UHGV virus genome: UHGV-0106768
Strand: one strand, 5' to 3'
Source: a virus
DNA length: 44,108 nucleotides
Below the pieces are notes generated by a model. That model worked only from the letters and a program-made list of their open reading frames with translations. It searched no databases and was not told the origin of the DNA. Shown piece after piece: positions 4,391 to 38,132 of the stretch; position 1 is the stretch's first letter; each line of letters opens with the position of its first letter. Position numbers and translations under genes: made by a program.

Positions 4391-5638
4391 ATGCCTGACG
4401 TTCACGCACTGCTCAGTGCGTCCAGTTCAAAACAGTGGCTACACTGTCCGCCGTCAGTCCGTTTGCAGGAGGGATTTCCGAATGAGAGTTCAGTCTACGC
4501 CGCAGAGGGCACGTTTGCCCACGAGATCTGCGAATACAAGGTACGTAAGTACCTGAAGGAGCGTGTGAAGCGTCCGCAGTCCGAGGAATATGACACCGAG
4601 GAAATCGAGCAGATCACAGATGTGTATGCGGAGTTCGTGATCTCCATCATTGAGCAGATGAAGGAGAACGGCTGTGAGCCGCTTGCTTTTGTTGAGGAGC
4701 GTGTGGACTACAGCCACATTGCCCCTTCCGGCTTTGGCACGGCAGATATGCTCATCATCGGTAAGGACGAGCAGGGACGCGGAATCCTTCATGTATGCGA
4801 TTTCAAGACGGGTGCAGGCGTGTTTGTGGATGCAGACCACAACAGCCAGATGATGCTCTATGCGATCGGAGCTTTAGCCGCCTACGGCTTTTTGTATGAT
4901 TTTGAGATCGTGCGTATGAGCATCATTCAGCCTCGTCTGGATAATATCAGCACATTCGAGTGTAGCAGAGCCGAGCTTGAGGAATGGGGCGAGAGCATCA
5001 AGCCCATTGCGAAACTTGCCTACGAGGGCAAAGGTGAACAGCACCCCGGCGACTGGTGTCGGTTCTGCCGTGCAAAGCCTGTTTGCAAAGCGTGTGCCAA
5101 TGAAGCACTGGCACTCTGCCGTGAGGATTTCCTTGACCTCGATGCCGGAGCATTCGATGATACTGCGGAGGAAAGCGATATGACCGCACCATACGAAGCG
5201 GATATACAGACTGCCGTATTCAAGCAGCCGTGACTGATTCCTATCAGCGAACTTGCGGAGATCCTGCCGACTCTGAACCGCATCAGCTCTTGGATCGAGG
5301 CGGTATTCGCATTCGTATCCTCCGAGGCGATCAATCACGGTGTACCGATTCCCGGCTATAAGGTGGTCGAAGGGCGCAGCAAGCGTGTATTCACAGATAC
5401 AAAAGCTGTGGTCGATACCGCTGTTCAGAACGGGTACACCGACCTTTACAAGCAGACGCTCATCACGCTGACGGAATTTGAAAAGATGATGGGCAAGAAA
5501 AAGTTCAACGAGCTGCTCGGTGAGTATGTCGCCAAGCCACCCGGAAAGCTGGCACTTGTGCCGGAGAGCGATCCGAGAGAACCCGTTGATCTCACAACAC
5601 CCGGTCAGGAATTTGAAGTTCTCTCTGATGATGAGTGA
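4391..5638 (+). CDS. DUF2800-like PD-(D/E)XK nuclease (Cas4/RecB-like), interrupted by in-frame TGA at 5231-5233
   Basis: N-terminal MPDVHALLSASSSKQWLHCPPS and C-terminal Cys cluster CRFCRAKPVCKAC are as expected for DUF2800; same-frame continuation through the stop reads as protein (ISELAEILPTLNRISSWIEAV...GYKVVEGRSKRVF); downstream part has no RBS or ATG. Confidence 0.7.
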
Positions 5639-5711
5639 GGATCATACAATAATGCCGCAATTATTCTGTTTGGTGAATACGCAAAATTGAATGAAATATA
5701 GGAGGTATACT

Positions 5712-6287
5712 ATGGCAAACACAACACCCGCGACTAAAGTGGTTATTCCCTGTCGCATTTCTTTTGCGAACATCTGGGAGCCAAAATCAATTAATGGCAG
5801 CGAAGAGAAGTATTCCGTTTCCCTACTGATCCCGAAGGATGACAAGGCAACGCTCGCCAAGATCAAGAAGGCAATTGAGGCGGCAAAGGAAGCGGCGAAG
5901 GAGAAGAAGTGGGGCGGCAAGATCCCGCCGAACCTCAAGCTGCCGATGCATGACGGCGACATCGACCGTCCTGATGACGAGAACTATGCCGGTCACTTCT
6001 TCTTCAATGCCACGAGCAAGGATGCACCGCAGATCGTTGACCGCCATGTGCAGCCGATTCTCGATCCGATGGAGTGCGGCAGCGGTGACTATTGCAATGT
6101 CAGCGTGAACTTCTACGGTTTTGCAGCATCCGGCAACAAGGGCATCGCAGCAGGACTCCAGAACATCCAGCTTGTCCGCCACGGTGAGCGTCTTGCCGGC
6201 AGGCCGACCGCCGCATCCGACTTCGTTGAGGTCGAGGGTGATGATGCGGATGATCTCGCAGACGATGATCTGGATTTCCTGAACTGA
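5712..6287 (+). CDS. DUF2815-like ssDNA-binding protein
   Basis: ATG 5712 with GGAGG RBS 6 nt upstream; sits in the DUF2800 - DUF2815 - PolA arrangement typical of this replication module. Confidence 0.65.
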   Translation: MANTTPATKVVIPCRISFANIWEPKSINGSEEKYSVSLLIPKDDKATLAKIKKAIEAAKEAAKEKKWGGKIPPNLKLPMHDGDIDRPDDENYAGHFFFNATSKDAPQIVDRHVQPILDPMECGSGDYCNVSVNFYGFAASGNKGIAAGLQNIQLVRHGERLAGRPTAASDFVEVEGDDADDLADDDLDFLN

Positions 6288-15936: not shown

Positions 15937-16114
15937 AAATAAATAAAAACAATAGAAAAGATAAGAAGAATAGAGGATTTTCACTGATTTGAACCATTAC
16001 CCATTTTGCACTGTTTTGAACCTTGCCCGATGCTGTCACTGACAAAGAGTGTGTAAGCGACAAAGCGTGGCAAGGTCAAAATCCAACGATCAATCATGCA
16101 GGAGGAACAAGAAT

Positions 16115-22005: not shown

Positions 22006-22319
22006 GAGCCAGACTGAAACCGCCGGGAGATGCCGTTCGCTGCGATGCCTGCGGATGTGCCTTTGTGCCGGAGCCGAAAATGCAGCGTGAGGGCGAGATC
22101 GAATACAGCTTCTTCAACTGTGATTACTGTGGCAAAGCGTATATCGTGTCTGTGACCGATGCCGCACTCCGCCGGAGCATCCGCAAGTACCGGACGCTTG
22201 CCGAAAAGCTGAAGGACAAGCCGCTGAGTGAAGAAACGCTCCGTGAAGTCACGGCGCTGAAGGATGCGAACACAAAAAGAGCCGCAGAGCTGCGGCAGAT
22301 GTATATACGGGAGGGATGA
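22002..22319 (+). CDS. zinc-ribbon hypothetical protein
   Basis: CDACGC...CDYCG; overlaps neighbours. Confidence 0.45.
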   Translation: MRARLKPPGDAVRCDACGCAFVPEPKMQREGEIEYSFFNCDYCGKAYIVSVTDAALRRSIRKYRTLAEKLKDKPLSEETLREVTALKDANTKRAAELRQMYIREG

Positions 22320-22320
22320 G

Positions 22321-24352: not shown

Positions 24353-24594
24353 CGAAACAGGAATGTGCCATCGTGACAGCGTACACAGGGTTCGCTATGC
24401 TGAAGGGCAGCGACCTGAAATATCTGTACAATTATCTCTCCGGTCTCATCGGCAGGCCGGTGTATTCACACGAGATCCCTGCGGTCGCAGAAGCCTGCAA
24501 GGAACAAATACGAGAAGATTTCCTTGCCCTGTGCAGGAACGCAAAGGAGGCGGATGATGGATCATACAACAATGACGCTCGGCAGTCTGTTTGA
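24349..24594 (+). CDS. hypothetical small protein
   Basis: 81-aa ORF overlapping both MTase genes. Confidence 0.4.
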   Translation: MTKQECAIVTAYTGFAMLKGSDLKYLYNYLSGLIGRPVYSHEIPAVAEACKEQIREDFLALCRNAKEADDGSYNNDARQSV

Positions 24595-26925: not shown

Positions 26926-26954
26926 TTGATATATCCGCCGTAATGGCGTAATAT
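26926..26954 (+). promoter_or_regulatory. sigma-70-type promoter P1 (TTGATA-17-TAATAT)
   Basis: Consensus-like hexamers with 17-bp spacer ~55 nt upstream of ATG 27011. Confidence 0.6.
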
Positions 26955-27010: not shown

Positions 27011-28132
27011 ATGAAAACTTATGCAATGATCATTGGAAACCGCAAGGAACTCACAAAGAGAATCGAGGCACTCACCGGAGAGCGCAGCGTATACACCTTC
27101 ATGCCGAGATGCGCCTATGAGATCGGGGCATTCGCAGTCGAGAAGGACGGCACACTTACGGCACAGGACGATGCCGACCAGAGCGTGATCGACACCCTGA
27201 GAGCCGAGGGTATGATCGGTGGTGAGATCATCGCAGAGAGCATCAAGGCAGTCGAGCCGGAGCAGACCGATGAGACCGCAGAGCCGGAACAGCCTGCACC
27301 GCCCGTAAGCACCGATGAATGGGACGATGATGAGGATGACGACGATGAGAACAGCGTCGAGGGCGAGAATGCGGAAGCGGAAGAGCCGGAGGAGTCCGAA
27401 GAAAATGCCGATAAGTCGGAGCCTTCCGCAGAGCCAGAAGCCGCACCTCCTGCGACCGAGGATGCCTGGGATGATGAACCGGAGGATGAACCCGGCGACG
27501 AGCCGGAAGAAACCACCGAGCTTCCTGAACCGCTGACCGCAGAGATCAGCTTCCCGCTGAGCCATCACACGGTGCAGAGCCTTACAAACCTCATCTGCAT
27601 GATCCACTCCCGCGGCGCACTTCTCAGCAAGGCAACCGGCGGACAGTTTTACGCTGACAAGAGCCTCGCCGATGCGATCCTCGATGACAAGACCTTCCGC
27701 AGCATTCACGAGCTGATCGCCTACATCAGAGAATGGGAGGAGACGAATCCTGAACTGAAGGGCATCCGCTTCGCCGATGACAAGCTAATCTTTGACGGCT
27801 TCGGTGCAGCGCAGGATGCCGAAACGGTGCAGACCTTCACCAAGCTCGCCACAGCCATGAACAGGATGGCGATCACGCAGAAACGTGTGCAGGCAAAGGA
27901 TGTCGATGACAGCAACGAAAAGTACGCACTCCGCATCTGGCTGATCCGCCTTGGGCTGAACGGCGCAGACTGCAAGGTTGACCGCAAGCGCCTCATGGCT
28001 CCGCTTTCCGGACACACCGCATTCCGCAACGATGCGGAGCGTGTGCGCTGGGAGGCAAAGCAAAAGGCAAAGCGTGATGCTGCCAGAACCGAACTGACCG
28101 AGGAGGATGAAAACGATGCAGTTTCCGAATGA
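27011..28132 (+). CDS. acidic protein with amidoligase-like C-terminal module
   Basis: 373 aa; long D/E-rich tract (DEWDDDEDDDDENSVEGENAEAEEPEESEEN...); C-terminal ~70 aa align with the C-terminus of the 28562 amidoligase. Confidence 0.6.
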   Translation: MKTYAMIIGNRKELTKRIEALTGERSVYTFMPRCAYEIGAFAVEKDGTLTAQDDADQSVIDTLRAEGMIGGEIIAESIKAVEPEQTDETAEPEQPAPPVSTDEWDDDEDDDDENSVEGENAEAEEPEESEENADKSEPSAEPEAAPPATEDAWDDEPEDEPGDEPEETTELPEPLTAEISFPLSHHTVQSLTNLICMIHSRGALLSKATGGQFYADKSLADAILDDKTFRSIHELIAYIREWEETNPELKGIRFADDKLIFDGFGAAQDAETVQTFTKLATAMNRMAITQKRVQAKDVDDSNEKYALRIWLIRLGLNGADCKVDRKRLMAPLSGHTAFRNDAERVRWEAKQKAKRDAARTELTEEDENDAVSE

Positions 28133-28477: not shown

Positions 28478-28506
28478 TTGCTATATCCTCCGAAAGACGG
28501 TAACAT
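28478..28506 (+). promoter_or_regulatory. promoter P2 (TTGCTA-17-TAACAT)
   Basis: Same architecture as P1; followed by conserved leader with GGGC-AAAC-GCCC hairpin. Confidence 0.6.
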
Positions 28507-28561
28507 GTGACACAACGGAAGGGCAAACGCCCACCGAAAAACCGAATCGGAGGATACCAAA

Positions 28562-29506
28562 ATGACTGAGAAAACCGCACAGCAGATCAACAGAATGAAG
28601 GAGCAGACCATCGGGGTTGAGATCGAGATGAACAACATCACCCGCAAGGCTGCCGCAAAGCTCGCCGCCAACTTCTTCGGCACCAGCCGCACCGAGTACA
28701 CCGCACACCGCAACGGCTACGAAACCTACAGCGCATGGGATGCACAGGGCAGAGAGTGGAAATTCCAGAAGGACGTCAGCATCGCAGGCCCCGACAGCGA
28801 AAAGTGCGAACTGGTCACACCGATCCTGCACTACGCAGACATCGAAACCCTGCAGGAGCTTGTGAGAAGGCTCAGAAAGGCAGGAGCGCGCAGTGATTAC
28901 ACGCGGGGATGTGGAGTCCACTGCCACATTGGAGCCCAGGGACACACACCGCAGACCTTGAGAAACCTCGCAAACCTGATGGCAAGCCACGAAACCCTGA
29001 TCGCCGAGGCAATCAGAGTAGACCAGAGCAGAATGCGCCGCTACTGCAGAACAGTTGACCCGAGATTCCTTGAACAGCTCAACCGCAAAAAGCCCACCAC
29101 GATGGCACAGCTTGCGGACATCTGGTACGGCGCACAGGGCTGCGAATACGGCAGAACCCACCACTACAACGACAGCCGCTATCACATGCTCAACCTCCAC
29201 GCTACCTTCACCAAAGGCACGGTCGAGTTCAGACTTTTCCAGTTCGCACCGCCTTCCAACGGCAAGCAGAACGGGCTCCACGCAGGCAAGCTCAAGAGCT
29301 ACATTCAGCTCTGCCTCGCAATGAGCCAGATGGCAAAGGACCTGCGGAGCGCCAGCCCCAAGGAACAGCAGAAGGAAAACAAAAAGTTCGCCATGCGGAC
29401 TTGGCTGATGAGAATGGGATTCATCGGGGACGAATTCGCAACCGCAAGGGAAACCCTCACCGAGAACCTTACAGGCGACAACAGCTTCCGCTTCGGCAGA
29501 CCTTAA
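28562..29506 (+). CDS. Amidoligase_2-family enzyme (glutamine-synthetase-like amidoligase)
   Basis: N-terminal IGVEIEMN motif characteristic of the family; 314 aa. Confidence 0.65.
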   Translation: MTEKTAQQINRMKEQTIGVEIEMNNITRKAAAKLAANFFGTSRTEYTAHRNGYETYSAWDAQGREWKFQKDVSIAGPDSEKCELVTPILHYADIETLQELVRRLRKAGARSDYTRGCGVHCHIGAQGHTPQTLRNLANLMASHETLIAEAIRVDQSRMRRYCRTVDPRFLEQLNRKKPTTMAQLADIWYGAQGCEYGRTHHYNDSRYHMLNLHATFTKGTVEFRLFQFAPPSNGKQNGLHAGKLKSYIQLCLAMSQMAKDLRSASPKEQQKENKKFAMRTWLMRMGFIGDEFATARETLTENLTGDNSFRFGRP

Positions 29507-29709
29507 AGCCTGCCCTGCGGGGCGGAAGAACAAGCGGAACGTCACGGCGGCGCACACAGCACCCTCATCGCCACGTGTGGGGCGGAAGGGTATCCTCCGA
29601 ACACATACCCAACTCAGTCAACCGAGCCACACAGCGCAAATGTAGGCAAGGCATAAAATGCACAACATACGGCACAGAATCGCCCTCGATGATCTGTTCA
29701 TTTACTCGC

Positions 29710-29738
29710 TTGATAATGCCGCCGAAAAGAGTTAACAT
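29710..29738 (+). promoter_or_regulatory. promoter P3 (TTGATA-17-TAACAT)
   Basis: 17-bp spacing; upstream of ATG 29778. Confidence 0.6.
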
Positions 29739-29777
29739 GGCACTACCGCAAGGAAAAAACGCAAAGGAGAACATAGC

Positions 29778-30239
29778 ATGAACAAGAAAAAATACTACAT
29801 AGCCTACGGCAGCAACCTCAACATCCGCCAGATGCGGTTCCGCTGCCCAGGCGCAAAGCCCATCGGCATTTCCGCGATTCCTGACTACGAACTGCTCTTC
29901 AAGAGCAGCAAGACGGGAGCGTACCTCACCATCGAGCCGAAGGACGGCGGGCTTGTTCCGGTCGCCGTGTGGGAAGTGACAGCCGACGATGAGAAGCACC
30001 TCGACATCTACGAGGGCTACCCGAACTTCTACTACAAAAAAGAAGTACGCCTGCCGATCAAGCTGGCAAACGGCAAGACCAAAAAGGTCACGGCATTTGT
30101 CTACATCATGCACGAGGAGCGTGAGATTGCGATCCCGTCAATGACCTACATCCGCACCTGCGAGGAAGGCTACCGCAACTTCGGATTTGATGTGAAGTAC
30201 CTTGACAGGGCATACATGAGAAGCACAAAGGAGGACTGA
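29778..30239 (+). CDS. gamma-glutamyl cyclotransferase-like (AIG2/GGCT family) protein
   Basis: N-terminal YIAYGSNLN motif and EGYP motif. Confidence 0.65.
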   Translation: MNKKKYYIAYGSNLNIRQMRFRCPGAKPIGISAIPDYELLFKSSKTGAYLTIEPKDGGLVPVAVWEVTADDEKHLDIYEGYPNFYYKKEVRLPIKLANGKTKKVTAFVYIMHEEREIAIPSMTYIRTCEEGYRNFGFDVKYLDRAYMRSTKED

Positions 30240-30241
30240 AA

Positions 30242-30445
30242 ATGAAAGAACAGGTTTTTGAGAAGCGTACATGTCCGCAATGCGGACGCACCTACACCGA
30301 GCGTCCTGCCCTATCCCGCTACGACAACGACACGATCATCTGCCCGGACTGCGGCACGAGGGAGGCACTCGAAAGCATGGGCATCAGCATCGAGGAACAG
30401 GACAAGATCCTCGGCATCATCCACGAGAAGTACAACGGCGAATAA
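30242..30445 (+). CDS. small zinc-ribbon protein
   Basis: CPQCG...CPDCG; starts 3 nt after the GGCT stop (same operon). Confidence 0.55.
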   Translation: MKEQVFEKRTCPQCGRTYTERPALSRYDNDTIICPDCGTREALESMGISIEEQDKILGIIHEKYNGE

Positions 30446-30453
30446 GGCGACAT

Positions 30454-30475
30454 AAAGGGGCGTTACAGCCCCTTT
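30454..30475 (+). terminator. terminator hairpin (AAAGGGGC / GCCCCTTT)
   Basis: 8-bp GC-rich stem 9 nt after the stop; weak U-tract. Confidence 0.5.
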
Positions 30476-30517
30476 CCGCATTCTCAGGGATAACTTTATC
30501 CCCCACTTTCCGGGCGT

Positions 30518-30553
30518 GACACGGCGCGTTCTGGCGCAAACTGTGGGCTTGTG
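30518..30553. repeat. cassette boundary repeat, partial copy (i)
   Basis: Core GACACGGCGCGTTCTGGCGC...TGTGGGCTTG shared with copies at 32212, 33081, 34408. Confidence 0.5.
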
Positions 30554-30617
30554 TATATGTACCTGTTCAGCTTGCTGAAAACGGCGATTCTTCTACGATT
30601 TATTTTGCATATAGGCG

Positions 30618-30646
30618 TGGACATATCGCCGGGATCATGGTAATAT
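30618..30646 (+). promoter_or_regulatory. promoter P4 (TGGACA-17-TAATAT with extended -10 TG)
   Basis: Upstream of ATG 30705. Confidence 0.6.
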
Positions 30647-30704
30647 GCTACACAACGGCAGGGGCAGACAGCCCACCGGAATTCATAACATGGAGGATAC
30701 GAAC

Positions 30705-31175
30705 ATGAACGAAAGCTACTTTGAGGAGATGACCTTCCAGTGCGCCGCCTATGAACGCGCCAAAAAGGAGCGCGCCGAGCGCAAGGCTCAGATTGCCGAA
30801 GCCCACGGCTACGACAGCCCGGAGATGGACGCTTGGTACGCTGAGGAGAAGGCGGCGGGTCCTTACCCCTACAGCGGCGGTGAGATGAAAGCCTACTGGG
30901 TGTACAAGATGCGCCGCGAGAACGACGGTGACGAGTTCGAGATGAGCGATTACTGCTGGGACAAGGAATTCCACGATTTCATCGAAACGCTCCGCAAGCT
31001 AGGCATCACCGAGTTCACGATCACCAATCAGAGCACGGCGCTGATGGAGAACATCTACGGATTTATTGCAGAAGGCTGCACGATGGTCGGAACGCACACC
31101 ATCACCAAGAAGAGCCTGCGCTGGAGCGAGGAAGAATACGAAACGGCACAGGGCATCCTTTTCAAGGTGAACTGA
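30705..31175 (+). CDS. hypothetical protein
   Basis: ATG 30705 with GGAGGA RBS (in-frame ATG 30690 sits inside the RBS). Confidence 0.55.
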   Translation: MNESYFEEMTFQCAAYERAKKERAERKAQIAEAHGYDSPEMDAWYAEEKAAGPYPYSGGEMKAYWVYKMRRENDGDEFEMSDYCWDKEFHDFIETLRKLGITEFTITNQSTALMENIYGFIAEGCTMVGTHTITKKSLRWSEEEYETAQGILFKVN

Positions 31176-31183
31176 TATCGACA

Positions 31184-31220
31184 GGAGCAGGGCTTCGGCT
31201 CTGCTCCCCCTCCCCCTTTT
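31184..31220 (+). terminator. rho-independent terminator
   Basis: 10-bp stem GGAGCAGGGC / GCTCTGCTCC with TTCG loop, followed by CCCCCTCCCCCTTTTCC. Confidence 0.7.
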
Positions 31221-31293
31221 CCTCATGTGTAACTCCTACAATACGAAAGGCTGAGATCGGCGATTCTTCTACGTTTTATTTTGCACATAGGCG

Positions 31294-31322
31294 TGGACTT
31301 ATCAGCAGGATCATGGTAATAT
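31294..31322 (+). promoter_or_regulatory. promoter P5 (TGGACT-17-TAATAT, extended -10)
   Basis: Upstream of ATG 31378. Confidence 0.6.
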
Positions 31323-31377
31323 GTGACACAACGGAAGGGCAGAACGCCTACCGAAAAACGAAACGGAGGATAACACC

Positions 31378-31698
31378 ATGAACCCCTACACACTGAGAAA
31401 GAGCCTGAACCTGATTGATGCCAACACGGCGATCACCCGCGAGGACTTCGAGAGCCTCTTCTGCAAGACTGCAGAGCGTGTCACCTTTACCTTCAACGGT
31501 TGGGACGGCAAGAGCTATGATGGCGAGAGCCGCAGCGGTTACGTTTACCGCACCATCATCGAGGGCTACGAGAATGTGAGATTCGTTAAGGTCGGCAAGG
31601 GACTGCATTACATCGATGAGGACAGCAGCATTACCGAGAAGGCTACGGGCATCGCCCACAAGGAAGCAGAGTGGCTGGTCGATGTGAAGAGAGCATAA
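31378..31698 (+). CDS. hypothetical protein
   Basis: 106-aa ORF with ACGGAGGA RBS. Confidence 0.55.
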   Translation: MNPYTLRKSLNLIDANTAITREDFESLFCKTAERVTFTFNGWDGKSYDGESRSGYVYRTIIEGYENVRFVKVGKGLHYIDEDSSITEKATGIAHKEAEWLVDVKRA

Positions 31699-31763
31699 GC
31701 AAAACAGCGGAGCCCTTCCTGCGGGGAGGGCTTACCGCAGAAAAAACATGGAGGTTTACGAAC

Positions 31764-32147
31764 ATGAGTACGAATTCAAGAGTCGGAATCCTGCATCAGG
31801 ACGGCGCCACGGAGACAATCTACTGCCATTGGGACGGCTACCCCGAACACCAGATGCCCATCCTCACCGAGCATTATAACACCGCCGAGAAGGTCAAGGC
31901 ACTGCTTGCCCTTGGAGACATCAGCATCCTCGGCGAGCGCCTTGCTCCCGATGCGGATGAGCCGCACAGCTTTGAAAAGCCTGCCGATGGTGTGACGGTT
32001 GCTTACCACCGCGACCGCAAAGAGCCGATGCAGCCTGCGGTCACCCACAAGAGCGTTGTTTCCCTGATGAGCGATGACTGGGGCATTCCGTATTACTACC
32101 TTTTCGATGAGGAAAAAGGAGCATGGCTTCCGCCGACCGAGGACTGA
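31764..32147 (+). CDS. hypothetical protein
   Basis: ATG 31764; translation-initiation region AACATGGAGGTTTACGAACATG nearly identical to that of the 30705 gene. Confidence 0.55.
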   Translation: MSTNSRVGILHQDGATETIYCHWDGYPEHQMPILTEHYNTAEKVKALLALGDISILGERLAPDADEPHSFEKPADGVTVAYHRDRKEPMQPAVTHKSVVSLMSDDWGIPYYYLFDEEKGAWLPPTED

Positions 32148-32211
32148 TAGGTTCAGCCCTGCGGTGCTGACTTGCCCCACGTTGTCCTTTGTGCGGTTTT
32201 CCTGCGATAAG

Positions 32212-32269
32212 CTTGCCCCTGCGGAAAGCCGCCTCACACGGCGCGTTTGTGTGCCTCCTGTGGGCTTGG
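32212..32269. repeat. cassette boundary repeat, copy (ii)
   Basis: CTTGCCCCTGCGGAAAGCCGCCTCACACGGCGCGTTTGTGTGCCTCCTGTGGGCTTGG. Confidence 0.55.
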
Positions 32270-32327
32270 TGCTATGTATACAACAAATGGCGCAGATACG
32301 CCGATTTTGTTCTGAACATTTAGCCGC

Positions 32328-32356
32328 TTGCTATTCCGGAAAGATCATGGTAATAT
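32328..32356 (+). promoter_or_regulatory. promoter P6 (TTGCTA-17-TAATAT, extended -10)
   Basis: Upstream of ATG 32413. Confidence 0.6.
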
Positions 32357-32412
32357 GCTACACAACGGAAGGGCAAACGCCCACCGAATACAAAACACGG
32401 AGGTAAACCACC

Positions 32413-32778
32413 ATGACAAAGAAGGAAATGAAAGCCGCAGTTGACAAGCTGAAGATGCTGCAGAACGGCAAAGCCGCCCTTGAGGGAATGACCGAAGCGG
32501 ACTGCCTTGAGCTTTTCGGGATCAGCAGAGCGCAGGCACTTGCAAACACAAACGCCGCCCTTGCCAAAACCGAGCAGGAGATTTTCAGAGCCGAGCATCC
32601 GCTGACAGGCATCGACAAACAGCTCTTCGAGATCGCAGCAAAGCACCTGATCACGGTGCAGGAGCGCGGAGACCTTGAAGCCCGCCACTGCGACAGCGAG
32701 GACTTCATCGAGGTTTCGGTCTGGGGGCTGGAAGCCGCCCTCAAGGATGCCTACGAGGCAGGACGCAAGAGCAAGTAA
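32413..32778 (+). CDS. hypothetical protein
   Basis: 121-aa ORF with ACGGAGG RBS. Confidence 0.55.
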   Translation: MTKKEMKAAVDKLKMLQNGKAALEGMTEADCLELFGISRAQALANTNAALAKTEQEIFRAEHPLTGIDKQLFEIAAKHLITVQERGDLEARHCDSEDFIEVSVWGLEAALKDAYEAGRKSK

Positions 32779-32843
32779 CCAAACGGAACAGCGCAGCCCT
32801 TCCGCAGGGAGGAGGGGCTGCCAATCCCGAAGGAGGAAAGAAC

Positions 32844-33023
32844 ATGGATACATACGCACAGCTTGAAATGCTGACCGCAGTCATCGCAAACCTGTCGGCC
32901 ACGGGAACATGGACGGAGCGAGAAGTGATGGAAACGCTGCTGGATGTCTTTGAACCGAAGGAGCTTGAACAGCTCGGCTACGGCGACTGCGTGAACGCAT
33001 ACTTGGAAGAGTACGGCGGATAG
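32844..33023 (+). CDS. small hypothetical protein (59 aa)
   Basis: Below ORF-track cutoff; GAAGGAGGA RBS 7 nt upstream of ATG 32844; ends TAG 33021-33023. Confidence 0.4.
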   Translation: MDTYAQLEMLTAVIANLSATGTWTEREVMETLLDVFEPKELEQLGYGDCVNAYLEEYGG

Positions 33024-33080
33024 CGACGACACACGCACCACGTTGCCTCGTGTGGGGCGGTGCCGGGGAGATGCGTACAG

Positions 33081-33124
33081 CTTGCCCCTGCGAAAAGCCG
33101 CCTTACACGGCGCGTTCTGGCGCG
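33081..33124. repeat. cassette boundary repeat, copy (iii)
   Basis: CTTGCCCCTGCGAAAAGCCGCCTTACACGGCGCGTTCTGGCGCG. Confidence 0.55.
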
Positions 33125-33193
33125 TCCTATACGATGTACAATTCCGCCCGACTTCCCGCCTCATGTTTGTCACATTTATTTTGCAGACAGACG

Positions 33194-33222
33194 TGGACTT
33201 TTCTGCGAAAAGACGGTAATAT
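33194..33222 (+). promoter_or_regulatory. promoter P7 (TGGACT-17-TAATAT)
   Basis: Upstream of ATG 33270. Confidence 0.6.
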
Positions 33223-33269
33223 GTGACTACCGCAAGAGAAGCGGAATCAATCAAAAGGAGCGAATCTAC

Positions 33270-33623
33270 ATGAAAATTCTGGTATGCGAACCCGGCAAGC
33301 ACCCCTACGTCAAGGACATCGAGTCGGGGCTGGAGAACCTTCAGCACGAGGTGGACGGACTGATTCAGGCCCTCTACCCATTTTCCGAAGAGGCGGCTGT
33401 TGTGTGCAACGAAGAAGGGCTGTTCCGCGATGACCTCGAATGGAACAGAACGGTCGATCCCTATGGTCCGATCAAGGGAACATTCTTCATTTGTGGGCTC
33501 GGCTTTGAAGATTTTACAGGACTGACCGATGAACAGATCGAAAAGTACACTAAGCTCTTCTGGCCTCCTGAGCTTTTCATCCCGACACCGAACGGCATGG
33601 TGGTGCTTCACATTGTGGAATGA
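33270..33623 (+). CDS. DUF3846-like protein
   Basis: MKILVCEPGKHPYVKDIESGLENLQHEVDG...VVCNEEGLF pattern; AAAAGGAG RBS. Confidence 0.55.
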   Translation: MKILVCEPGKHPYVKDIESGLENLQHEVDGLIQALYPFSEEAAVVCNEEGLFRDDLEWNRTVDPYGPIKGTFFICGLGFEDFTGLTDEQIEKYTKLFWPPELFIPTPNGMVVLHIVE

Positions 33624-33631
33624 CCGCAACA

Positions 33632-33655
33632 GGGGCAGGGCTTCGGCTCTGCTCC
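33632..33655 (+). terminator. terminator-like hairpin (near-duplicate of the 31184 stem)
   Basis: GGGGCAGGGC / GCTCTGCTCC with TTCG loop, 9 nt after the stop; no clear U-tract. Confidence 0.45.
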
Positions 33656-33726
33656 GCACCATTCCCCGGTCATAATGTACACAACTGAACGCCGAAAAAT
33701 GCAGAAATGATCGTGATTACTCACGC

Positions 33727-33755
33727 TTGATAATGTAGGCAAGAAGAGTTATACT
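33727..33755 (+). promoter_or_regulatory. promoter P8 (TTGATA-17-TATACT)
   Basis: Upstream of ATG 33813. Confidence 0.6.
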
Positions 33756-33812
33756 GTGTACAACGGAAGGGCGGAAAGCCCAGCCGAAAACGAAAATGCG
33801 GAGGTACACACC

Positions 33813-33992
33813 ATGAAAACGAAGCAGGAACTGATCGAGAAGGCAAAGAAAGAGTGGGGCGAGACTTGGAACGAGGGCATGATCGAGTACGATGCCGAGT
33901 ACAACGAGTACATCGTCTGGGTAGGCAAGCCGGACATCTACAAAGCCTTCTTCGATGCCGACACCCTCAGATGCATTGGCACGAAGTGCTGA
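33813..33992 (+). CDS. small hypothetical protein (59 aa)
   Basis: ATG 33813 with GCGGAGG RBS. Confidence 0.45.
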   Translation: MKTKQELIEKAKKEWGETWNEGMIEYDAEYNEYIVWVGKPDIYKAFFDADTLRCIGTKC

Positions 33993-34047
33993 GAACAACC
34001 GCCGCCCTTCGGGGCGGCACAACACCAATACTAAGGAGGACATTTAC

Positions 34048-34321
34048 ATGAGCGAGAACACAGAAAAGCGCGATGCAGCCGAAGAACTAAGAACTTACCG
34101 ATGCACAGGCAGACCGCAACGATGACATCTACGAGGCAGCTTTTGAATTCTGCAAGGTGCTGACCGAGAACCCCGACCTCGAATGGGACATGGCGTTCCT
34201 CGGTGAGATCGCCGACCTTGCCGCTGGCATCATGACCGAGCAGGGACACAAGGTGCGGTTCCCCAGTGTGGTCACCGAGCAGGACGGCACGCAGTACATT
34301 GAAGAATACTACGGCGGCTGA
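34048..34321 (+). pseudogene. small gene disrupted by a 7-bp tandem duplication (frameshift)
   Basis: ATG 34048 with AAGGAGGA RBS; AAGAACT repeated in tandem at 34082-34095 shifts the frame; removing one copy gives a continuous ~89-aa ORF ending at TGA 34319-34321. Confidence 0.55.
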
Positions 34322-34407
34322 TCGGCAAAACGGAGCAGTCCTTCTGCGGAGGGGCTGTTCCACGCCACGTTCGCTTGTGTGGGGGGCTTACGGCTTTCTG
34401 CGGATAT

Positions 34408-34464
34408 CTTGCCCCGCGATAAAAGCCGCCCACACGGCGCATTTGTGTGCCTCCTGCGGCAAGG
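34408..34464. repeat. cassette boundary repeat, copy (iv)
   Basis: CTTGCCCCGCGATAAAAGCCGCCCACACGGCGCATTTGTGTGCCTCCTGCGGCAAGG; flanked by CTTGCC/GGCAAG inverted ends. Confidence 0.55.
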
Positions 34465-34522
34465 CATAATATGTACAACAACCGACAAAAAATCACCTTG
34501 CACATTCTGGTAGTTTAGCCGC

Positions 34523-34551
34523 TTGATATATCTGCCGAAAAGAGTTATAGT
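34523..34551 (+). promoter_or_regulatory. promoter P9 (TTGATA-17-TATAGT)
   Basis: Upstream of ATG 34608. Confidence 0.6.
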
Positions 34552-34607
34552 GTGTACAACGGAACGGGAAACCGAGCCGAAAACTACGAAAGAACGAGGT
34601 AAACACT

Positions 34608-34844
34608 ATGTGGCACGAAGGCACGATTCTGGCACCGACCAAGGAAGGCAAGACGGTGGTTCACTACTGGGCAAAGGTCTACGACGAGGGCAGCCAGTAC
34701 GGCATCAACGAGGGCAGAATCAGTAAACTGACACTCAAGGAGAATGGCAAGGTCATCTACAACTACGACAGAGGCGAGGATGTACCCGAGCAGAACGAGG
34801 CTGCGGAGATTGCCCTTGCGATCCTGATGTACGAGTACAAGTAA
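34608..34844 (+). CDS. hypothetical protein
   Basis: 78-aa ORF; last gene before the packaging module. Confidence 0.5.
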   Translation: MWHEGTILAPTKEGKTVVHYWAKVYDEGSQYGINEGRISKLTLKENGKVIYNYDRGEDVPEQNEAAEIALAILMYEYK

Positions 34845-34932: not shown

Positions 34933-34962
34933 AGGCTTGCAGTTTTGCAGGCCTTTTCTTTA
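34933..34962 (+). terminator. terminator-like hairpin plus T-tract immediately upstream of terS
   Basis: AGGCTTGCA / TGCAGGCCT stem (one G-U pair), GTTT loop, then TTTTCTTT; only ~25 nt before the terS start. Confidence 0.4.
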
Positions 34963-34992
34963 TGCACATTTTTATTGGAAGGAGTGATGCGG

Positions 34993-35466
34993 ATGGCTCA
35001 GAGAGGCAGAAAACCAACGCCTACGGCGATCAAAGAGCTGGAAGGCAATCCGGGCAAGCGTCCGCTGAATGATGCAGAGCCGAAGCCGGAACGCAAGGCA
35101 CCGCCCTGTCCGAAGTGGCTGGAGCCCGAAGCAAAAAAGGAATGGCGCAGGCTGTCAAAGCAACTGGAGCAGATTGGTGTGCTGACCGAGGTCGATCAGG
35201 CGGCATTCGCATCCTACTGTCAGGCATACGCACGATGGAAAGAAGCCGAGGAATTCATGACCCAGCACGGCACGATCGTAAAAACAAAATCAGGTTACTG
35301 GCAGCAGGTTCCGCAGGTATCCATTGCGCAAACTTATCTGAAGATCATGAACAAGATCGCAGAGCAGTTTGGCCTGACCCCGGCGGCAAGAAGCCGTATC
35401 ACTGCCGGCGCAGATATGAAAAACGCTGCCGTTGACGATATGGATGAACTTCTCGGAGGTGGCTGA
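34993..35466 (+). CDS. terminase small subunit (P27 family)
   Basis: GRKPTPTAIKELEGNPGKRPLN...AFASYCQAYARWKEAEEF...FGLTPAARSRI pattern; GGAAGGAG RBS; in-frame ATG also at 34987. Confidence 0.75.
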   Translation: MAQRGRKPTPTAIKELEGNPGKRPLNDAEPKPERKAPPCPKWLEPEAKKEWRRLSKQLEQIGVLTEVDQAAFASYCQAYARWKEAEEFMTQHGTIVKTKSGYWQQVPQVSIAQTYLKIMNKIAEQFGLTPAARSRITAGADMKNAAVDDMDELLGGG

Positions 35467-38132
35467 TGGCGAGAACGGCAAAGGCAAGAGAAAGACCTGC
35501 CAACTATCCGAAACTGAAGGATTATAAACCGACACGCTTTATGCTGCCGGAATCGCACTACGATGCGGCAAAGGCTGACCGAGCTGTGCGGTTCATCGAG
35601 AATCTCTGCCATACCAAAGGACGCTGGGCAGGCAAACCGTTCTGGCTGCTTCCGTGGCAGGAACAGATCATCCGGGATATTTTCGGCATCGTCAAAGAGG
35701 ACGATATGCGGCAATTTCGTACCGCCTATGTCGAAATTCCAAAGAAAAATGGGAAGCAGCTTGCACTGGATACACCGATCCCGACTCCGCAGGGATTCAC
35801 CAATATGGGAGATCTGAAGGTCGGAGATACAGTATTCGATGAAAACGGCATTCCGTGCCATGTGGTTGCGAAAAGTCCTGTGGATGATACAGAGCAAGCC
35901 TACAAGCTGACCTTCAAGGACGGCACCTCGATCATTGCCGGGGAAAGGCATCTGTGGAACTGTCAGTATATTTACGGCAAACGCAAGGATGTTCTCTGGA
36001 CGACCGGCGAGATCTATCGCAGGACAACGGAATACAGACAGCGTTTTTCCGACAGACCACAGACAAAGCGGGATTCCCTTATCCGAATTCCGGTGTGCGG
36101 TGTCCTTCAGACAGAAGCGGCAGTTTTACCGATTGATCCGTATCTGTACGGCTACTGGCTCGGAAACGGTAATGTGACCATGCCGGAGATCACTGTTCGG
36201 ACGGAGGATGTCGAGGATATCATCTCGAATATTCCGTATAAGGTACACAACCGTTATCCGCAGAAATGCGGCGGCAGTGAGATCATAAAGTACAATGAAC
36301 TGAAAGCAGTACTACTTGACAGCTTCCGTGAAAAGAAGATCCGACCAGAATATCTGAGGGCATCCGCAGAGCAGAGATGGGCATTACTGCAAGGGCTTAT
36401 GGATTCGGACGGCTGTATCGGTGAACGCAAAGGGCAAAGTGTGTATGTCACAACGCTGCGAGAGCTGGCGCTTTCCGTCAGAGAACTGCTGTGGTCACTC
36501 GGCATCAAAAATGCAGTGAAATGTGAGCCTTCTACACGGCATGGGTGGCCGACCGGCGAGATTTTGTATATCGTCCGTTTTACAACCTTTGATGACCAAC
36601 CGACATCAAGGCTTAAACGCAAAAATACACGCACACAGGCGCGGTTAAAGGAAACTCGCTCCTGTTTTCATTATCTGCTGGATATTCAACCTGTAAATCA
36701 TCCTGTAAAAATGCAGTGCATTCAGGTGGACAGTCCGAGTCACCAATATCTCGCAGGACCGTCATTTGTGCCTACGCACAACAGTGAGCTTGCAGCGGCA
36801 ATTGCACTGTATCTGCTCTACGCCGACAACGAGCCGTCTGCTGAGGTCTACGGCGCTGCTGCTGATCGTGGGCAGGCATCCATTGTATTCGATGTCGCCA
36901 AAAGAATGGTTGAGATGACACCGGCACTTCTGAAACGCTCAAAAATCATGGCGGCGACAAAGCGTCTGGTGAATTACAGTAATGTTGGCTTTTATCAGGT
37001 GCTTTCAGCGGAAGTCGGTACAAAGCACGGATTGAATGTATCCGGTCTGGTTTTGGATGAACTTCATGCCCAACCGAACCGCAGCCTTGTGGATGTTCTC
37101 ACAAAGGGTTCCGGTGATGCCCGTACTCAGCCGCTGTACTTCCTGATCACAACCGCCGGAACGGATCGCAACAGCATCTGCTACGAGTATCACACGAAAG
37201 CAAAAGATATTCTGGACGGCAGGCGCATTGATCCGTCCTTCTATCCTGTGATCTACGGCTTGAACGATGATGACGACTGGAACGCAGAGGAGTCATGGTA
37301 TAAGGCAAATCCCTCGCTCGGATACACTATCGCCATCGACCGAGTCCGCGATGCTCACCGGGAAGCCCTTACAAATCCCGCTGAAGAAAATGTATTCCGT
37401 CAGCTGAGGCTTGACCAGTGGGTAGGCAGTGCGGTGGCATGGATTCCGGAGCATATCTACGACAGGGGCAATCTTCCGATCGACCTCGAAAAGCTCCGGG
37501 GACGGGAGTGCTACGCAGGTCTTGACCTATCCAGCACATCGGATATCACGGCATTTGTGCTGGTGTTCCCTCCGCTGCATGACGGCGAGAAATACATCGT
37601 TGTCCCGCACTTCTGGCTGCCGAGAGAAACGCTCGATTTACGAGTACGGCGAGACCATGTTCCCTACGATGTATGGGAGCGCATGGGATTATTTCATATC
37701 ACCGAGGGCAATGTGGTCGATTACAATTTCGTGCGGAAAACGATCAACGAGCTGCACACGATGTACAACATCAAGGAAATTGCTGCCGACCGCTGGAATG
37801 CCACACAGCTTATCACAGACCTTGAGGGAGACGGATTTACCGTTGTTCCGATGGGCATGGGCTTCAAGGATATGTCCCCGCCGATGAAGGAACTGTACAA
37901 GCTCATACTCGAAGGGCAGTTTATCCACGGCGGCAACCCTGTACTCCGCTGGATGGCAGGAAATGTGGTCGCTGAAATTGATGCAGCGGAGAACATCAAA
38001 CCAAGTAAAAAGAAAAGTACAGAAAAGATTGACGGTATCGTGGCATGGATCATGGCACTTGACCGCTGCATCCGCCACGAAATGCAGGGCAGTGTCTATG
38101 ACGAACCCGGCCACGATCTTGTGGTCATCTGA
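35466..38132 (+). CDS. terminase large subunit, intein-containing
   Basis: Walker A KKNGK split from SELAAAIALYLLYAD by an insertion; downstream Walker B-like LVLDELHAQ, ITTAGTD, nuclease-domain motifs. Confidence 0.85.
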   Translation: MARTAKARERPANYPKLKDYKPTRFMLPESHYDAAKADRAVRFIENLCHTKGRWAGKPFWLLPWQEQIIRDIFGIVKEDDMRQFRTAYVEIPKKNGKQLALDTPIPTPQGFTNMGDLKVGDTVFDENGIPCHVVAKSPVDDTEQAYKLTFKDGTSIIAGERHLWNCQYIYGKRKDVLWTTGEIYRRTTEYRQRFSDRPQTKRDSLIRIPVCGVLQTEAAVLPIDPYLYGYWLGNGNVTMPEITVRTEDVEDIISNIPYKVHNRYPQKCGGSEIIKYNELKAVLLDSFREKKIRPEYLRASAEQRWALLQGLMDSDGCIGERKGQSVYVTTLRELALSVRELLWSLGIKNAVKCEPSTRHGWPTGEILYIVRFTTFDDQPTSRLKRKNTRTQARLKETRSCFHYLLDIQPVNHPVKMQCIQVDSPSHQYLAGPSFVPTHNSELAAAIALYLLYADNEPSAEVYGAAADRGQASIVFDVAKRMVEMTPALLKRSKIMAATKRLVNYSNVGFYQVLSAEVGTKHGLNVSGLVLDELHAQPNRSLVDVLTKGSGDARTQPLYFLITTAGTDRNSICYEYHTKAKDILDGRRIDPSFYPVIYGLNDDDDWNAEESWYKANPSLGYTIAIDRVRDAHREALTNPAEENVFRQLRLDQWVGSAVAWIPEHIYDRGNLPIDLEKLRGRECYAGLDLSSTSDITAFVLVFPPLHDGEKYIVVPHFWLPRETLDLRVRRDHVPYDVWERMGLFHITEGNVVDYNFVRKTINELHTMYNIKEIAADRWNATQLITDLEGDGFTVVPMGMGFKDMSPPMKELYKLILEGQFIHGGNPVLRWMAGNVVAEIDAAENIKPSKKKSTEKIDGIVAWIMALDRCIRHEMQGSVYDEPGHDLVVI
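35757..36782 (+). mobile_element. class-3-like intein (342 aa) with LAGLIDADG homing-endonuclease domain inside terL
   Basis: Starts QLALDTPIPTPQGF (Gln, not Cys/Ser/Thr); block B HLW; block F Cys (MQCIQVD); ends FVPTHN followed by Ser; LAGLIDADG-like LYGYWLGNGN and LLQGLMDSDG; excision restores EIPKKNGK-SELAAAIALY. Confidence 0.7.

Follow-up and report, generated by a model that had tools for sequence, protein, structure and literature searches.

Putative stem-loop and promoter linkers, comparable to PeSL elements, between small accessory transcription units of a phage genome

PeSL (promoter-early stem-loop) cassettes have been described in T4-like phages (Arbiol et al. 2010, PMC2839356; Comeau et al. 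2014, PMC4122927). They combine a strong sigma-70 promoter with a GGGG...CCCC stem-loop that terminates transcription and mediates indels (PMC2839356; PMC4122927). Comparable repeats are found in the window analysed here, a 44,108-nucleotide phage genome whose lineage we read as a rumen/gut Oscillospiraceae/Ruminococcus type. As with PeSLs, a repeated intergenic motif of at least ~100 bp holds both a stable GGGG...CCCC-type stem-loop, in the terminator position, and a strong host-type promoter, copies concentrate among small accessory ORFs in a hyperplastic part of the genome, and close relatives differ by indels with a hybrid motif at the junction. In both cases the phage's own recombination system is invoked rather than a dedicated recombinase. 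However, the two motifs are unrelated in sequence, and the window phage belongs to another lineage, with a Gram-positive-type promoter and ribosome-binding site. Its stem-loop is much longer (~70 nt), carries a conserved loop and lies ~110 nt 5′ of the promoter with a degenerate promoter copy between, whereas the PeSL loop lies inside or next to the -35/-10 region. The window stem-loop is also gained and lost as an independent module, unlike that of PeSLs. Terminator activity and mini-circles have been shown for PeSLs, whereas the window linker is known from its sequence.

Other systems share parts of this architecture. In phage T7, early genes have common upstream promoters, and RNase III cuts them out of one long transcript at conserved, paralogous, long and imperfect hairpins, which set and stabilise mRNA 3′ ends. 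The window likewise has conserved, paralogous, long, imperfect sense-strand hairpins between early genes, but its cassettes each have their own promoter, and cleavage at its hairpin is hypothetical. Integron attC sites are also imperfect boundary hairpins in one orientation whose inner-stem structure is kept more than its sequence; in contrast, the window has no integrase and no R′/R″ core sites, its crossovers vary, its cassettes carry promoters and exchange appears homology-driven. Lambdoid morons (promoter-gene-terminator) and the linker or boundary sequences of modular theory resemble the locus in having self-expressed accessory genes between promoter and hairpin and conserved intergenic sequences at mosaic joints. 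No common repeat family flanks morons, however, whereas the shared repeat of the window is itself the recombination substrate. REP/BIME, Correia and other MITE families are 35-150 nt intergenic inverted-repeat elements that may have promoter-like ends, fold within transcripts or serve as recombination sites, but these are genome-wide and in both orientations, whereas the window family occupies one array on one strand in one phage lineage.

The elements lie within a chain of ~10 small transcription units, for which the following genes serve as landmarks:

24524-26848, DNA methylase, left border of the chain
31764-32147, orf127, 5′ neighbour of element copy A
32844-33023, orf59, 5′ neighbour of element copy B
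34945-35466, small terminase, right border of the chain

The next genes after copy C are orf78 and the small terminase. Among the other phage genes are those for a sigma-70 region 4 protein, an HTH protein and a Zn-ribbon protein.

Three full copies (A, B and C), one decayed copy and one fragment are present in the window, each directly 5′ of a sigma-A-type promoter:

29572..29685, + strand, decayed element copy E (nhmmer E = 4e-6; alignment A1; repeats D7, D15)
30519..30555, + strand, fragment D, ACACGGCGCGTTCTGGCGC and adjacent bases (nhmmer E = 0.005; repeat D8)
32170..32304, + strand, element copy A (nhmmer E = 6e-27; repeats D2/D3)
33031..33166, + strand, element copy B (nhmmer E = 2e-25)
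34362..34499, + strand, element copy C (nhmmer E = 1e-35), last copy before orf78/small terminase

Repeat search recovered 65-nt copies at 32199-32263, 33068-33132 and 34395-34459 (74% identity to the reference), and this search and the profile (E = 1e-35 to 2e-25) bear out the copies that a first-pass annotation had reported at 32212, 33081 and 34408. The partial copy it had placed near 30518 was also recovered (30519-30555, E = 0.005); it matches model positions 76-112 only and is flanked by the Zn-ribbon gene and the DUF7698 cassette. Shorter motifs listed at ~29571 and ~29648 exist, but both fall inside the decayed copy (29572-29685, profile E = 4e-6), which has amidoligase 2 on one side and the GGACT cassette on the other. 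Three occurrences of the core GCCGCC-N1-2-ACACGGCGC were counted, against none in 100 dinucleotide shuffles. Copy A, comprising hairpin module and pre-promoter box, is placed between orf127 and the DUF6900 cassette promoter, while copy B begins ~20 nt past the orf59 stop codon and precedes the DUF3846 cassette with its TGGACT-17-TAATAT promoter. Homology blocks of 24 relatives open at the left edge of copy C (34363-34365). Promoters that lack the hairpin module occur in the window's intergenic regions 31176-31377 and 33624-33813 and in several relatives.

To define the family, we searched the window and 80 relatives with a profile built from 60 members. This gave 229 matches, 228 of them on the + (gene) strand and all upstream of the small terminase, with 162 full length and 1-6 copies per locus; 529 kb downstream of the small terminase yielded no element copy by profile search. 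The element was found in just one gene array of one phage lineage (48 IMG/VR stretches, 12 GTDB contigs), is carried by two sublineages whose TerL proteins are merely 61% identical, and has no match in Rfam. The gap from the upstream stop codon is at most 20 nt in 89/161 copies, the element keeps a fixed distance from the stop codon and from the next ribosome-binding site or promoter (162 copies), and no other structure separates stop codon and promoter in 55% of copies. The earlier statement that copies always follow a terminator is only partly true, as copy B stands ~20 nt past a stop codon with no separate hairpin, but the statement that they always precede the next promoter holds (median 95 nt from element to next GGAGG).

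The hairpin spans ~70 nt, with CGTGTGGGGCGG as its 5′ arm and the repeat core CCGCCCCACACG as its 3′ arm, in the imperfect layout CGCC-T-GTGTGGGG ... loop GCGGATAACTTGCCCC ... CCCCACAC-GGCG. CGTGTGGGGCGG had been taken for a separate motif (29574, 33049, 34375); it is reverse-complementary to the core CCGCC(N)CACACG and makes up one arm of a single long hairpin. Structure prediction, proposed earlier as a check, gave an average folding z of -3.2 across 60 distinct copies, 48 of which had z < -2. In the window, the hairpin cores of copies B (33045-33114) and C (34372-34441) fold at -39.8 kcal/mol (+ strand, z = -3.25; - strand, -27.7 kcal/mol) and -32.4 kcal/mol (z = -2.4), and that of copy A (32184-32245) is weak (-20.6 kcal/mol, z = -1.0) because of an 8-nt deletion in its 5′ arm.

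Arms pair better with their own partners than when swapped between copies (-12.9 vs -11.8 kcal/mol; z = -3.8; 0/5000 permutations as low), and some copies have inner stems of entirely unlike sequence, such as CGCCGUUCUG/CAGAACGGCG in L190. Column-wise covariation in the outer stem is flat, with 250/500 shuffles reaching the observed value, because this stem is simply conserved. G-U mismatches outnumber A-C mismatches (86 vs 30), which favours the sense strand. Fold energies are alike on both strands (-31.0 vs -30.9 kcal/mol), leaving room for a role at the DNA level. Because the sequence after the long hairpin (CGTTTGTG, CGTTCTGG or CAACTGTG) contains no canonical U-tract and terminator-like sites in the region are not in excess (10 vs 11.6 by shuffle), termination is a putative role. 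Conserved across the family are the loop GCGGATAACTTGCCCC, the stem base GTGTG/CACAC and the motif CCACGTT, but the loop differs in at least a third of copies (GGATAAC in 55/162). In a plain terminator, the conserved loop sequence and CCACGTT would be superfluous. Beyond the hairpin, a GGCGCG-N4-CGCGCC dyad is 86% paired, with a sense-strand G-U bias of 48 vs 7. This dyad stands family-wide where the CACAC/GTGTG inverted repeat noted earlier is found in copies A and C only, and the proposed CTTGCC/GGCAAG pairing does not generalise, just 69% of cells being paired across the family.

The 3′ third of the element, or pre-promoter box, is followed by a true promoter, as illustrated by copy C and by the other promoter cassettes of the window:

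34465..34512, + strand, pre-promoter box of copy C (CATAAT/TAATAT, GTACAAC, mini hairpin, T-rich stretch)
34523..34551, + strand, sigma-A-type promoter after copy C, TTGATA-17-TATAGT (consensus scan; repeat families D1, D5, D7)
26926-26954, further promoter cassette
28478-28506, further promoter cassette
29710-29738, further promoter cassette
30618-30646, further promoter cassette
31294-31322, further promoter cassette
32328-32356, further promoter cassette
33194-33222, further promoter cassette
33727-33755, further promoter cassette

Promoters were called by consensus scan and repeat families D1, D5 and D7, and remaining sites were read by hand. There are ~10 such repeated cassettes, 34523-34551 among them; a leader hairpin (ACAACGGAAGGGCAAACGCCC) and a GGAGG site come after every promoter (repeats D1/D3), and each cassette has its own promoter. 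The box aligns collinearly with nine true promoter cassettes and has the same geometry (TTTGTG-17-CATAAT-ATGTACAAC vs TTGATA-17-TATAGT-GTGTACAAC), and on this alignment it is a degenerate paralogue of the promoter part that spans -10, +1 and leader hairpin. It persists where the hairpin module is absent. Its -35-like part is variable (TTTGTG, TTCTGG, ACTGTG) and one element subtype lacks 10 nt between dyad and box, making a functional second promoter doubtful.

Comparison with relatives reveals losses of whole cassettes and of the hairpin module, listed here together with two genes of the candidate recombination machinery:

33117..34401, + strand, 1285-bp segment lost by B x C recombination (DUF3846 cassette and two small ORFs)
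34362..34464, + strand, copy C hairpin module, a present/absent unit (CCACGTT, long hairpin, GC dyad, to GGCAAGG)
4391-5233, + strand, phage exonuclease (PHROG 69, E = 6e-80)
5691-6287, + strand, gp2.5-like ssDNA-binding/annealing protein (PHROG 112, E = 1e-65)

In seven contigs from different metagenomes, exactly the B-to-C DNA is gone and a hybrid B/C element is left; the coordinates given fix the length alone, the true crossovers lying inside homology shared by B and C. Junction homology is 41-42 bp, and there are two crossover points, each in 9-10 bp identity tracts, one junction type being seen in L138, L176, L173 and L174 and the other in L136, L171 and L191. Promoter-by-promoter deletions of 906 and 1424 bp, with junction homology of 31-32 bp, are also found. 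The two B x C crossover points, and the fact that promoter repeats delete alike, point to ordinary homology-driven recombination rather than an attC-like process. The exonuclease and gp2.5-like protein (4391..6287) may constitute the machinery for such short-homology recombination. Neighbours are discordant on one or both sides in 73/313 pairs of near-identical elements. Copies thus recombine and sit at cassette boundaries, as the first-pass annotation had proposed, and the B x C deletions in relatives do break at copies; since about half of the ~8 clean indels available lack the element at one or both ends, its term 'hot spot' is not statistically established.

The module itself is polymorphic. 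L181 lacks exactly the 103 nt of 34362-34464 but retains what lies on either side, the gene with its terminator upstream and the CATAAT box and promoter downstream, and the A-position module (about 32171-32258) is missing in L170, L158 and L183. The hairpin module is thus not needed at every position.

On balance, we lean towards the reading that small early/accessory units are separated by PeSL-like linkers, which insulate cassettes and provide portable homology and which join a stem-loop to a promoter, the boundary repeat being the stem-loop half. On the gene strand, such a linker would run 5′ to 3′ from CCACGTT through the ~70-nt hairpin, a short GC dyad and the degenerate -10/+1/leader copy to a real sigma-A promoter, leader hairpin and GGAGG ribosome-binding site. 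The hairpin may take the terminator slot of the upstream cassette, where it could block read-through between units, or set and stabilise the 3′ end of the upstream mRNA. Since near-identical sequence of ~100-200 bp recurs every few genes in one orientation, element and promoter copies serve as portable homology, and copy-to-copy recombination, probably carried out by the exonuclease and annealing protein, deletes, inserts or swaps whole self-expressing cassettes.

A credible but fairly unlikely alternative is that the element chiefly serves a dedicated factor as its binding site, recombination being a side effect. The factor might be a phage regulator whose operator is the GC dyad, centred near the -35 position of the CATAAT box, or an antiterminator, a processing enzyme (compare the RNase III sites of the T7 early region) or a stability factor that binds the conserved loop in RNA. 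Regulator binding had been raised by the first-pass annotation, and the conserved loop and GC dyad speak in its favour. Constancy of GCGGATAACTTGCCCC, GTGTG/CACAC and CCACGTT while inner stems change with compensation speaks for such a site, as do the dyad's pairing (86%) and strong G-U sense bias (48 vs 7) and the promoter geometry of the 3′ part, and the phage encodes sigma-70 region 4, HTH and Zn-ribbon proteins. However, the -35-like part is unconserved, one subtype is 10 nt shorter, the loop varies in at least a third of copies (GGATAAC 55/162), paralogues homogenised through recombination may seem conserved without selection, Rfam holds no match, and the binding partner is purely hypothetical. 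The attC analogy drawn earlier is close to refuted. Integron-like site-specific exchange would account for imperfect 60-100 nt hairpins in a single orientation at cassette boundaries and for cassette loss between copies, but the same copy pair shows two crossover points, promoter repeats recombine similarly, every cassette has its own promoter, the flanking GTT is direct rather than inverted with no inverted RYYYAAC/GTTRRRY core pair, and a search of the 44-kb window turned up no integrase or tyrosine recombinase.

It is distinctly improbable that the module belongs to the small non-autonomous mobile elements (MITE/REP/Correia type), inserts 5′ of promoters and owes its copies to its own spread rather than to any gain for the phage. 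Although it is a discrete ~90-103 nt unit, edged by a 12-15 bp inverted repeat with CGTT on both sides in many copies, and is present or absent at two positions with both flanks kept, its orientation is the same in 228/229 copies and it is confined to a single gene array of a single lineage (48 IMG/VR stretches, 12 GTDB contigs). Moreover, indel ends differ from the inverted-repeat ends, target duplication was not seen, the 44-kb window yielded neither a transposase nor an HUH gene, and genomes differing by the module are only ~85% identical, so that multi-step homologous exchange explains the polymorphism. Also rather improbable is that the repeats are functionless remains of promoter cassettes that underwent tandem duplication and deletion ('solo' promoter remnants with an old terminator), gene conversion keeping the repeats alike. 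The degenerate promoter copy without a gene in the 3′ third, the decayed (29572-29685) and fragmentary (30519-30555) copies and the dispensability of the module at some positions fit such an origin; yet compensatory changes keep the hairpin across diverged subtypes and both sublineages (TerL 61% identical), and orientation is strict, with fixed stop-codon and promoter spacing in 162 copies.

The accessory genes of this tailed phage, whose genes all lie on the + strand, form a chain of short transcription units between a C5 methylase gene (24524-26848) and the small terminase gene (34945-35466). Elsewhere the phage encodes an HTH protein (1134-2033), a sigma-70 region 4 protein (2648-3397), endonucleases (10437-11458), an exonuclease, a gp2.5-like annealing protein, a DNA polymerase, a helicase, a primase, NrdD/G and several DNA methyltransferases, and its structural and packaging genes specify small and large terminases, a portal, a protease and a major head protein. 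Genes in the array encode two amidoligases, a gamma-glutamyl cyclotransferase-like protein, a Zn-ribbon protein, DUF7698, DUF6900 and DUF3846 proteins and several ORFans, and this content is strongly mosaic among relatives. In each unit, a recurring sigma-A-type promoter (TTGATA/TTGCTA/TGGACA-17-TAATAT/TATAGT) is followed by a recurring leader that contains a small GC hairpin and by a GGAGG ribosome-binding site. About 10 such promoters are present, and five of them have an additional repeat upstream (termed the element), whose full copies are composed of a hairpin module and a pre-promoter box.

The first-pass annotation had described recurring boundary repeats between these cassettes, and they are real. 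The three main copies are 65 nt repeats that are 74% identical to the reference, the repeat core occurs three times in the sequence versus none in 100 shuffles, and all of the motifs named in that annotation fall inside the full copies A, B and C, the decayed copy E or the fragment D. To define the family, we fetched 80 loci (at most 10 kb on each side) from the small-terminase relatives in IMG/VR, of which there are at least 438, and built a profile from 60 distinct copies. The profile identifies the following features in the window.

29572-29685, + strand, decayed copy E
30519-30555, + strand, fragment D
32170-32304, + strand, copy A
33031-33166, + strand, copy B
34362-34499, + strand, copy C

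The window and its relatives together contain 229 matches, 228 of them on the + strand, and 162 copies in 59 sequences are full length (one to six per locus). All 229 lie inside the methylase-terminase array, upstream of the terminase. A profile search of 529 kb downstream of the terminase revealed no copies, and the structural region carries none. A scan with a 15-base GC-rich core by itself was uninformative, giving at least 120 single chance matches in unrelated viral contigs.

An exact-pattern scan of GTDB species genomes recovered 12 contigs, all from Oscillospiraceae, Ruminococcus or Clostridia and all with the same array. In IMG/VR the pattern was found in 48 stretches, always in the array, and some of these belong to a sublineage with a TerL of just 61% identity. 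Among the 12 GTDB contigs is one from the isolate Ruminococcus flavefaciens 007c (L202, NZ_ATAX01000017.1, 82,484 bp), whose array with element copies makes this strain a cultivable host candidate. The related annotated Acutalibacteraceae phage NatCom_991 (Ca. Heliusvirales) has the amidoligase and the promoter family in common with the window and lacks the hairpin module; promoters and intergenic repeats go unmentioned in the Ca. Heliusvirales paper.

The family consensus begins CCACGTTCGCC-T-GTGTGGGG ... TCTGCGGATAACTTGCCCC ... CCCCACAC-GGCGCG-TTTG-TGCGCC and continues 3′ as TCCTGCGGCAAGG-CATAATATGTACAAC-AAACGGCGAAAAATCGCC-(T-rich)-TTTAGCCGC-TTGATA, where TTGATA is the -35 hexamer of the true promoter. 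The sequence CGTGTGGGGCGG, previously listed as a separate motif, corresponds to the repeat core CCGCCCCACACG in reverse complement, and pairing of the two closes an imperfect hairpin about 70 nt long. RNA structure prediction, a check proposed in the first-pass annotation, recovers the GTGTGGGG...CCCCACAC hairpin when its ends are defined by the family alignment: z values relative to dinucleotide shuffles average -3.2 and are below -2 in 48 of the 60 distinct copies. Single-sequence folds of arbitrary 101 nt windows were not significant, and only the alignment-defined ends made the folds stand out.

The outer stem is 85% paired and too conserved for covariation to be visible. RNAalifold predicted only three pairs on a MAFFT alignment. 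The inner stem varies among subtypes (for example, CGGTTTTCC/GGAAAACCG, CGGCTTT/AAAGCCG, GGCATTC/GAATGCC and CGCCGTTCTG/CAGAACGGCG), and because its pairs fall in different registers from one subtype to another, we replaced that analysis with an arm-swap test. The two arms of a given copy paired better with each other than with arms taken from other copies (z = -3.8, with none of 5000 permutations as low and no correction for relatedness among copies). Fold energies are the same on both strands, and mismatches on the sense strand comprise 86 of the G-U type versus 30 of the A-C type, an excess that weakly suggests that the hairpin acts in the sense transcript.

Pairing of CTTGCC in the loop with the downstream GGCAAG, an inverted repeat reported earlier that would form a pseudoknot, is not supported. 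A DnaA box in the loop (TGCGGATAA, 8/9 versus TGTGGATAA) was rejected, with GGATAAC kept in only 55 of 162 copies. Searches with Rfam 15 covariance models gave no match at gathering thresholds over the whole window, and nothing relevant at E <= 1 over 29400-34700.

The 3′ third of the element can be aligned collinearly with all nine true promoter cassettes in the window, such that TTTGTG-17-CATAAT-ATGTACAAC and a small hairpin correspond to TTGATA-17-TATAGT-GTGTACAAC and the leader hairpin. Since the -35 part of this region varies and one subtype lacks 10 nt there, we regard the 3′ third, from its sequence, as a degenerate promoter copy that would be at best a weak or factor-dependent promoter; on the same grounds, we doubt that the element contains a second working sigma-A promoter. 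We also discarded a micro-ORF that would begin with the ATG of CATAATATG, as its length ranges from 4 to 30 aa, its frame differs among subtypes and 29 copies have no ATG. The leaders of the true promoters share ACAACGGAAGGGCAAACGCCCACCGAAAA and a small GC hairpin at the predicted 5′ end, which may serve as an mRNA-stabilising 5′ stem-loop. Leaders with this shared start are located as follows.

28512-28554, leader with conserved start
31328-31370, leader with conserved start
32362-32404, leader with conserved start
33760-33802, leader with conserved start

The element always precedes a promoter, with a median of 95 nt from the end of the model to the next GGAGG. In 89 of 161 copies it starts no more than 20 nt from the preceding stop codon and is thus the sole structure in the terminator slot; in the remaining copies a simple hairpin precedes it. 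Intergenic regions of the window without an element (31176-31377 and 33624-33813) carry a simple GC hairpin. Tested as an intrinsic terminator, the element has the GC-rich hairpin and lacks the immediate U-tract, its tail containing 2-4 T per 8 nt. A consensus terminator scan found no excess of terminators and flagged only the mini hairpin at 32288-32303.

The first-pass annotation had also proposed that the repeats mediate cassette exchange. Relatives at the level of at least 93% identity display about eight clean indels within the array. The clearest of them, seen in seven contigs that each come from a different metagenome, takes out exactly the 1285 bp separating copy B from copy C and leaves a hybrid element. 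The switch between copies falls in AAAAGCCGCC in four of these loci (L138, L176, L173 and L174) and in ACACGGCGC in the other three (L136, L171 and L191). Two further deletions, of 906 and 1424 bp, join two promoter/leader copies across 31-32 bp of homology. The leader, which belongs to the repeated promoter cassette, is a recombination substrate as well. Two indels have one end in an element, and the rest have no connection to the repeats. Among more diverged relatives, the left edge of copy C is where blocks of homology begin in 24 loci, and that of copy B in eight; 73 of 313 near-identical element pairs differ in their neighbour on at least one side. The proposed outcome is borne out and the proposed mechanism is not. 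The crossovers do not occur at a fixed site. The phage encodes an exonuclease and a gp2.5-like annealing protein, and systems of this kind recombine short homologies.

Two other joints were seen in these comparisons. A deletion of 611-613 bp (32255-32868) in L171 and L191 connects the GC dyad of copy A with the interior of orf59 through only 3 bp of microhomology; this event is illegitimate and has one of its ends at the hairpin. In L121, L138 and L176, which are otherwise 93-97% identical, homology begins only at 27530-27551, inside amidoligase 1, so that the N-terminal third of this gene (27011-27550) and the region upstream have been replaced; this is a mosaic joint within a gene, away from any repeat.

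The hairpin module itself is optional. It is missing at the A position (~32171-32258) from L170, L158, L183 and others and at the C position (34362-34464) from L181, and these loci retain the gene upstream with its terminator, as well as the CATAAT box and the promoter. Polymorphic presence of a module containing an inverted repeat is what a mobile hairpin of MITE-like or REP-like origin would produce. Nevertheless, the ends of the indels lie outside the inverted repeat and no target duplication is seen, in genomes that are only about 85% identical. These observations lead us to favour multi-step homologous exchange over transposition. The dispersal in unrelated contexts and in both orientations that a mobile hairpin would be expected to show is also contradicted by the distribution, with all copies but one on a single strand and every public match in the one gene array. 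The conserved loop, together with the independent gain and loss of the module, does provide a lead to a specific factor. We consider it improbable that this module of about 100 nt, in which the loop and the CCACGTT edge are conserved, acts as an active signal for recombination or mobility rather than as a passive patch of homology. Such a signal would involve recognition of folded ssDNA or RNA by a phage protein, for example an HNH or other endonuclease or the annealing protein, and would amount to an integrase-free, hairpin-guided cassette-exchange system in a widespread lineage of gut and rumen phages.

The likeness to attC sites suggested by the first-pass annotation fails on several counts. 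Sites of the attC type carry inverted R″ (RYYYAAC) and R′ (GTTRRRY) at their ends, whereas in the element, as read from the sequences, ACGTT at the left end and GCGTT at the right end run in the same direction, and the inverted repeat is CGCC..GTGTG / CACAC..GGCG. The crossover position in attC is fixed, in contrast to the two intervals used by the B/C pair. Integron cassettes are promoterless and expressed from a common Pc promoter, whereas each phage cassette has its own. Finally, attC sites lie near a gene for the tyrosine recombinase IntI, and no integrase or transposase was found among the proteins of the 44 kb window.

A closer parallel is offered by the PeSLs of T4-like phages, repeated intergenic sequences that combine a strong sigma-70 promoter with a terminating GGGG...CCCC stem-loop (PMC2839356; PMC4122927). 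PeSLs concentrate in hyperplastic regions, and by recombining with one another they delete, insert or circularise ORFan cassettes without a dedicated recombinase (PMC2839356; PMC4122927). Like a PeSL, the element is a repeated intergenic motif with a promoter of the host sigma-70/sigma-A type, an AT-rich upstream region and an adjacent stable stem-loop, is restricted to a mosaic array comparable to the hyperplastic regions, rich in small non-essential ORFs, where PeSLs occur, and is the site where indels between close relatives end in two motifs and leave a hybrid at the junction. Judged by sequence, it appears to have all the features that define a PeSL at this level. Unlike a PeSL, the element in this lineage has a long hairpin with a conserved loop, a degenerate promoter copy between hairpin and promoter, and a hairpin module that is gained and lost independently. 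The sole relevant homology result is that copy C with its promoter found no match by blastn in 50,697 GenBank phage records, and hence we make no claim of descent: the likeness would be one of working like a PeSL. Our preferred description of the element is that of a stem-loop module belonging to a PeSL-like linker, carried by a lineage of Ruminococcus/Oscillospiraceae phages.

On this description, the PeSL principle, in which portable regulatory linkers insulate accessory genes and shuffle them as ready-to-express cassettes, would extend beyond the T4-like phages of Gram-negative bacteria to an abundant group of Oscillospiraceae/Ruminococcus phages (at least 438 related contigs in IMG/VR). 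The profile and consensus provide a sequence handle for marking out cassettes within the hypervariable array that precedes the terminase and for tracking cassette turnover in metagenomes. The array probably serves as a reservoir for early genes that may have anti-defence roles (amidoligases, GGACT, DUF3846 and DUF6900).

Several features of neighbouring genes were also observed. The two amidoligase paralogues (27011-28132 and 28562-29506) adjoin the gamma-glutamyl cyclotransferase-like gene (29778-30239) and the Zn-ribbon gene (30242-30445). This set, which is also kept beside the terminase in NatCom_991, may have an early role or one directed at host defence. At 16049-17209 and 22264-26848 the phage encodes a SAM synthetase along with at least three DNA methyltransferases, one of which has a fused ParB-like N-terminal domain. 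With these genes it invests heavily in DNA modification just upstream of the array. The gene at 34049-34321, between a terminator (~34000-34019) and copy C, looks disrupted: the ATG at 34049 leads to a stop at ~34124, and a second frame (34157-34321) runs to the end. Relatives align over this whole interval at 81-86% identity. A frameshifted pseudogene is one possible explanation, a sequencing error another. Among relatives there is also a 1367 bp indel directly after the small terminase gene (L162 versus L144). The large terminase ORF (35466-38132) encodes 888 aa, of which the TerL ATPase and nuclease domains occupy only residues 442-872. This arrangement, together with a LAGLIDADG domain at residues 303-370, suggests that the ORF carries an intein or a homing-endonuclease insertion.
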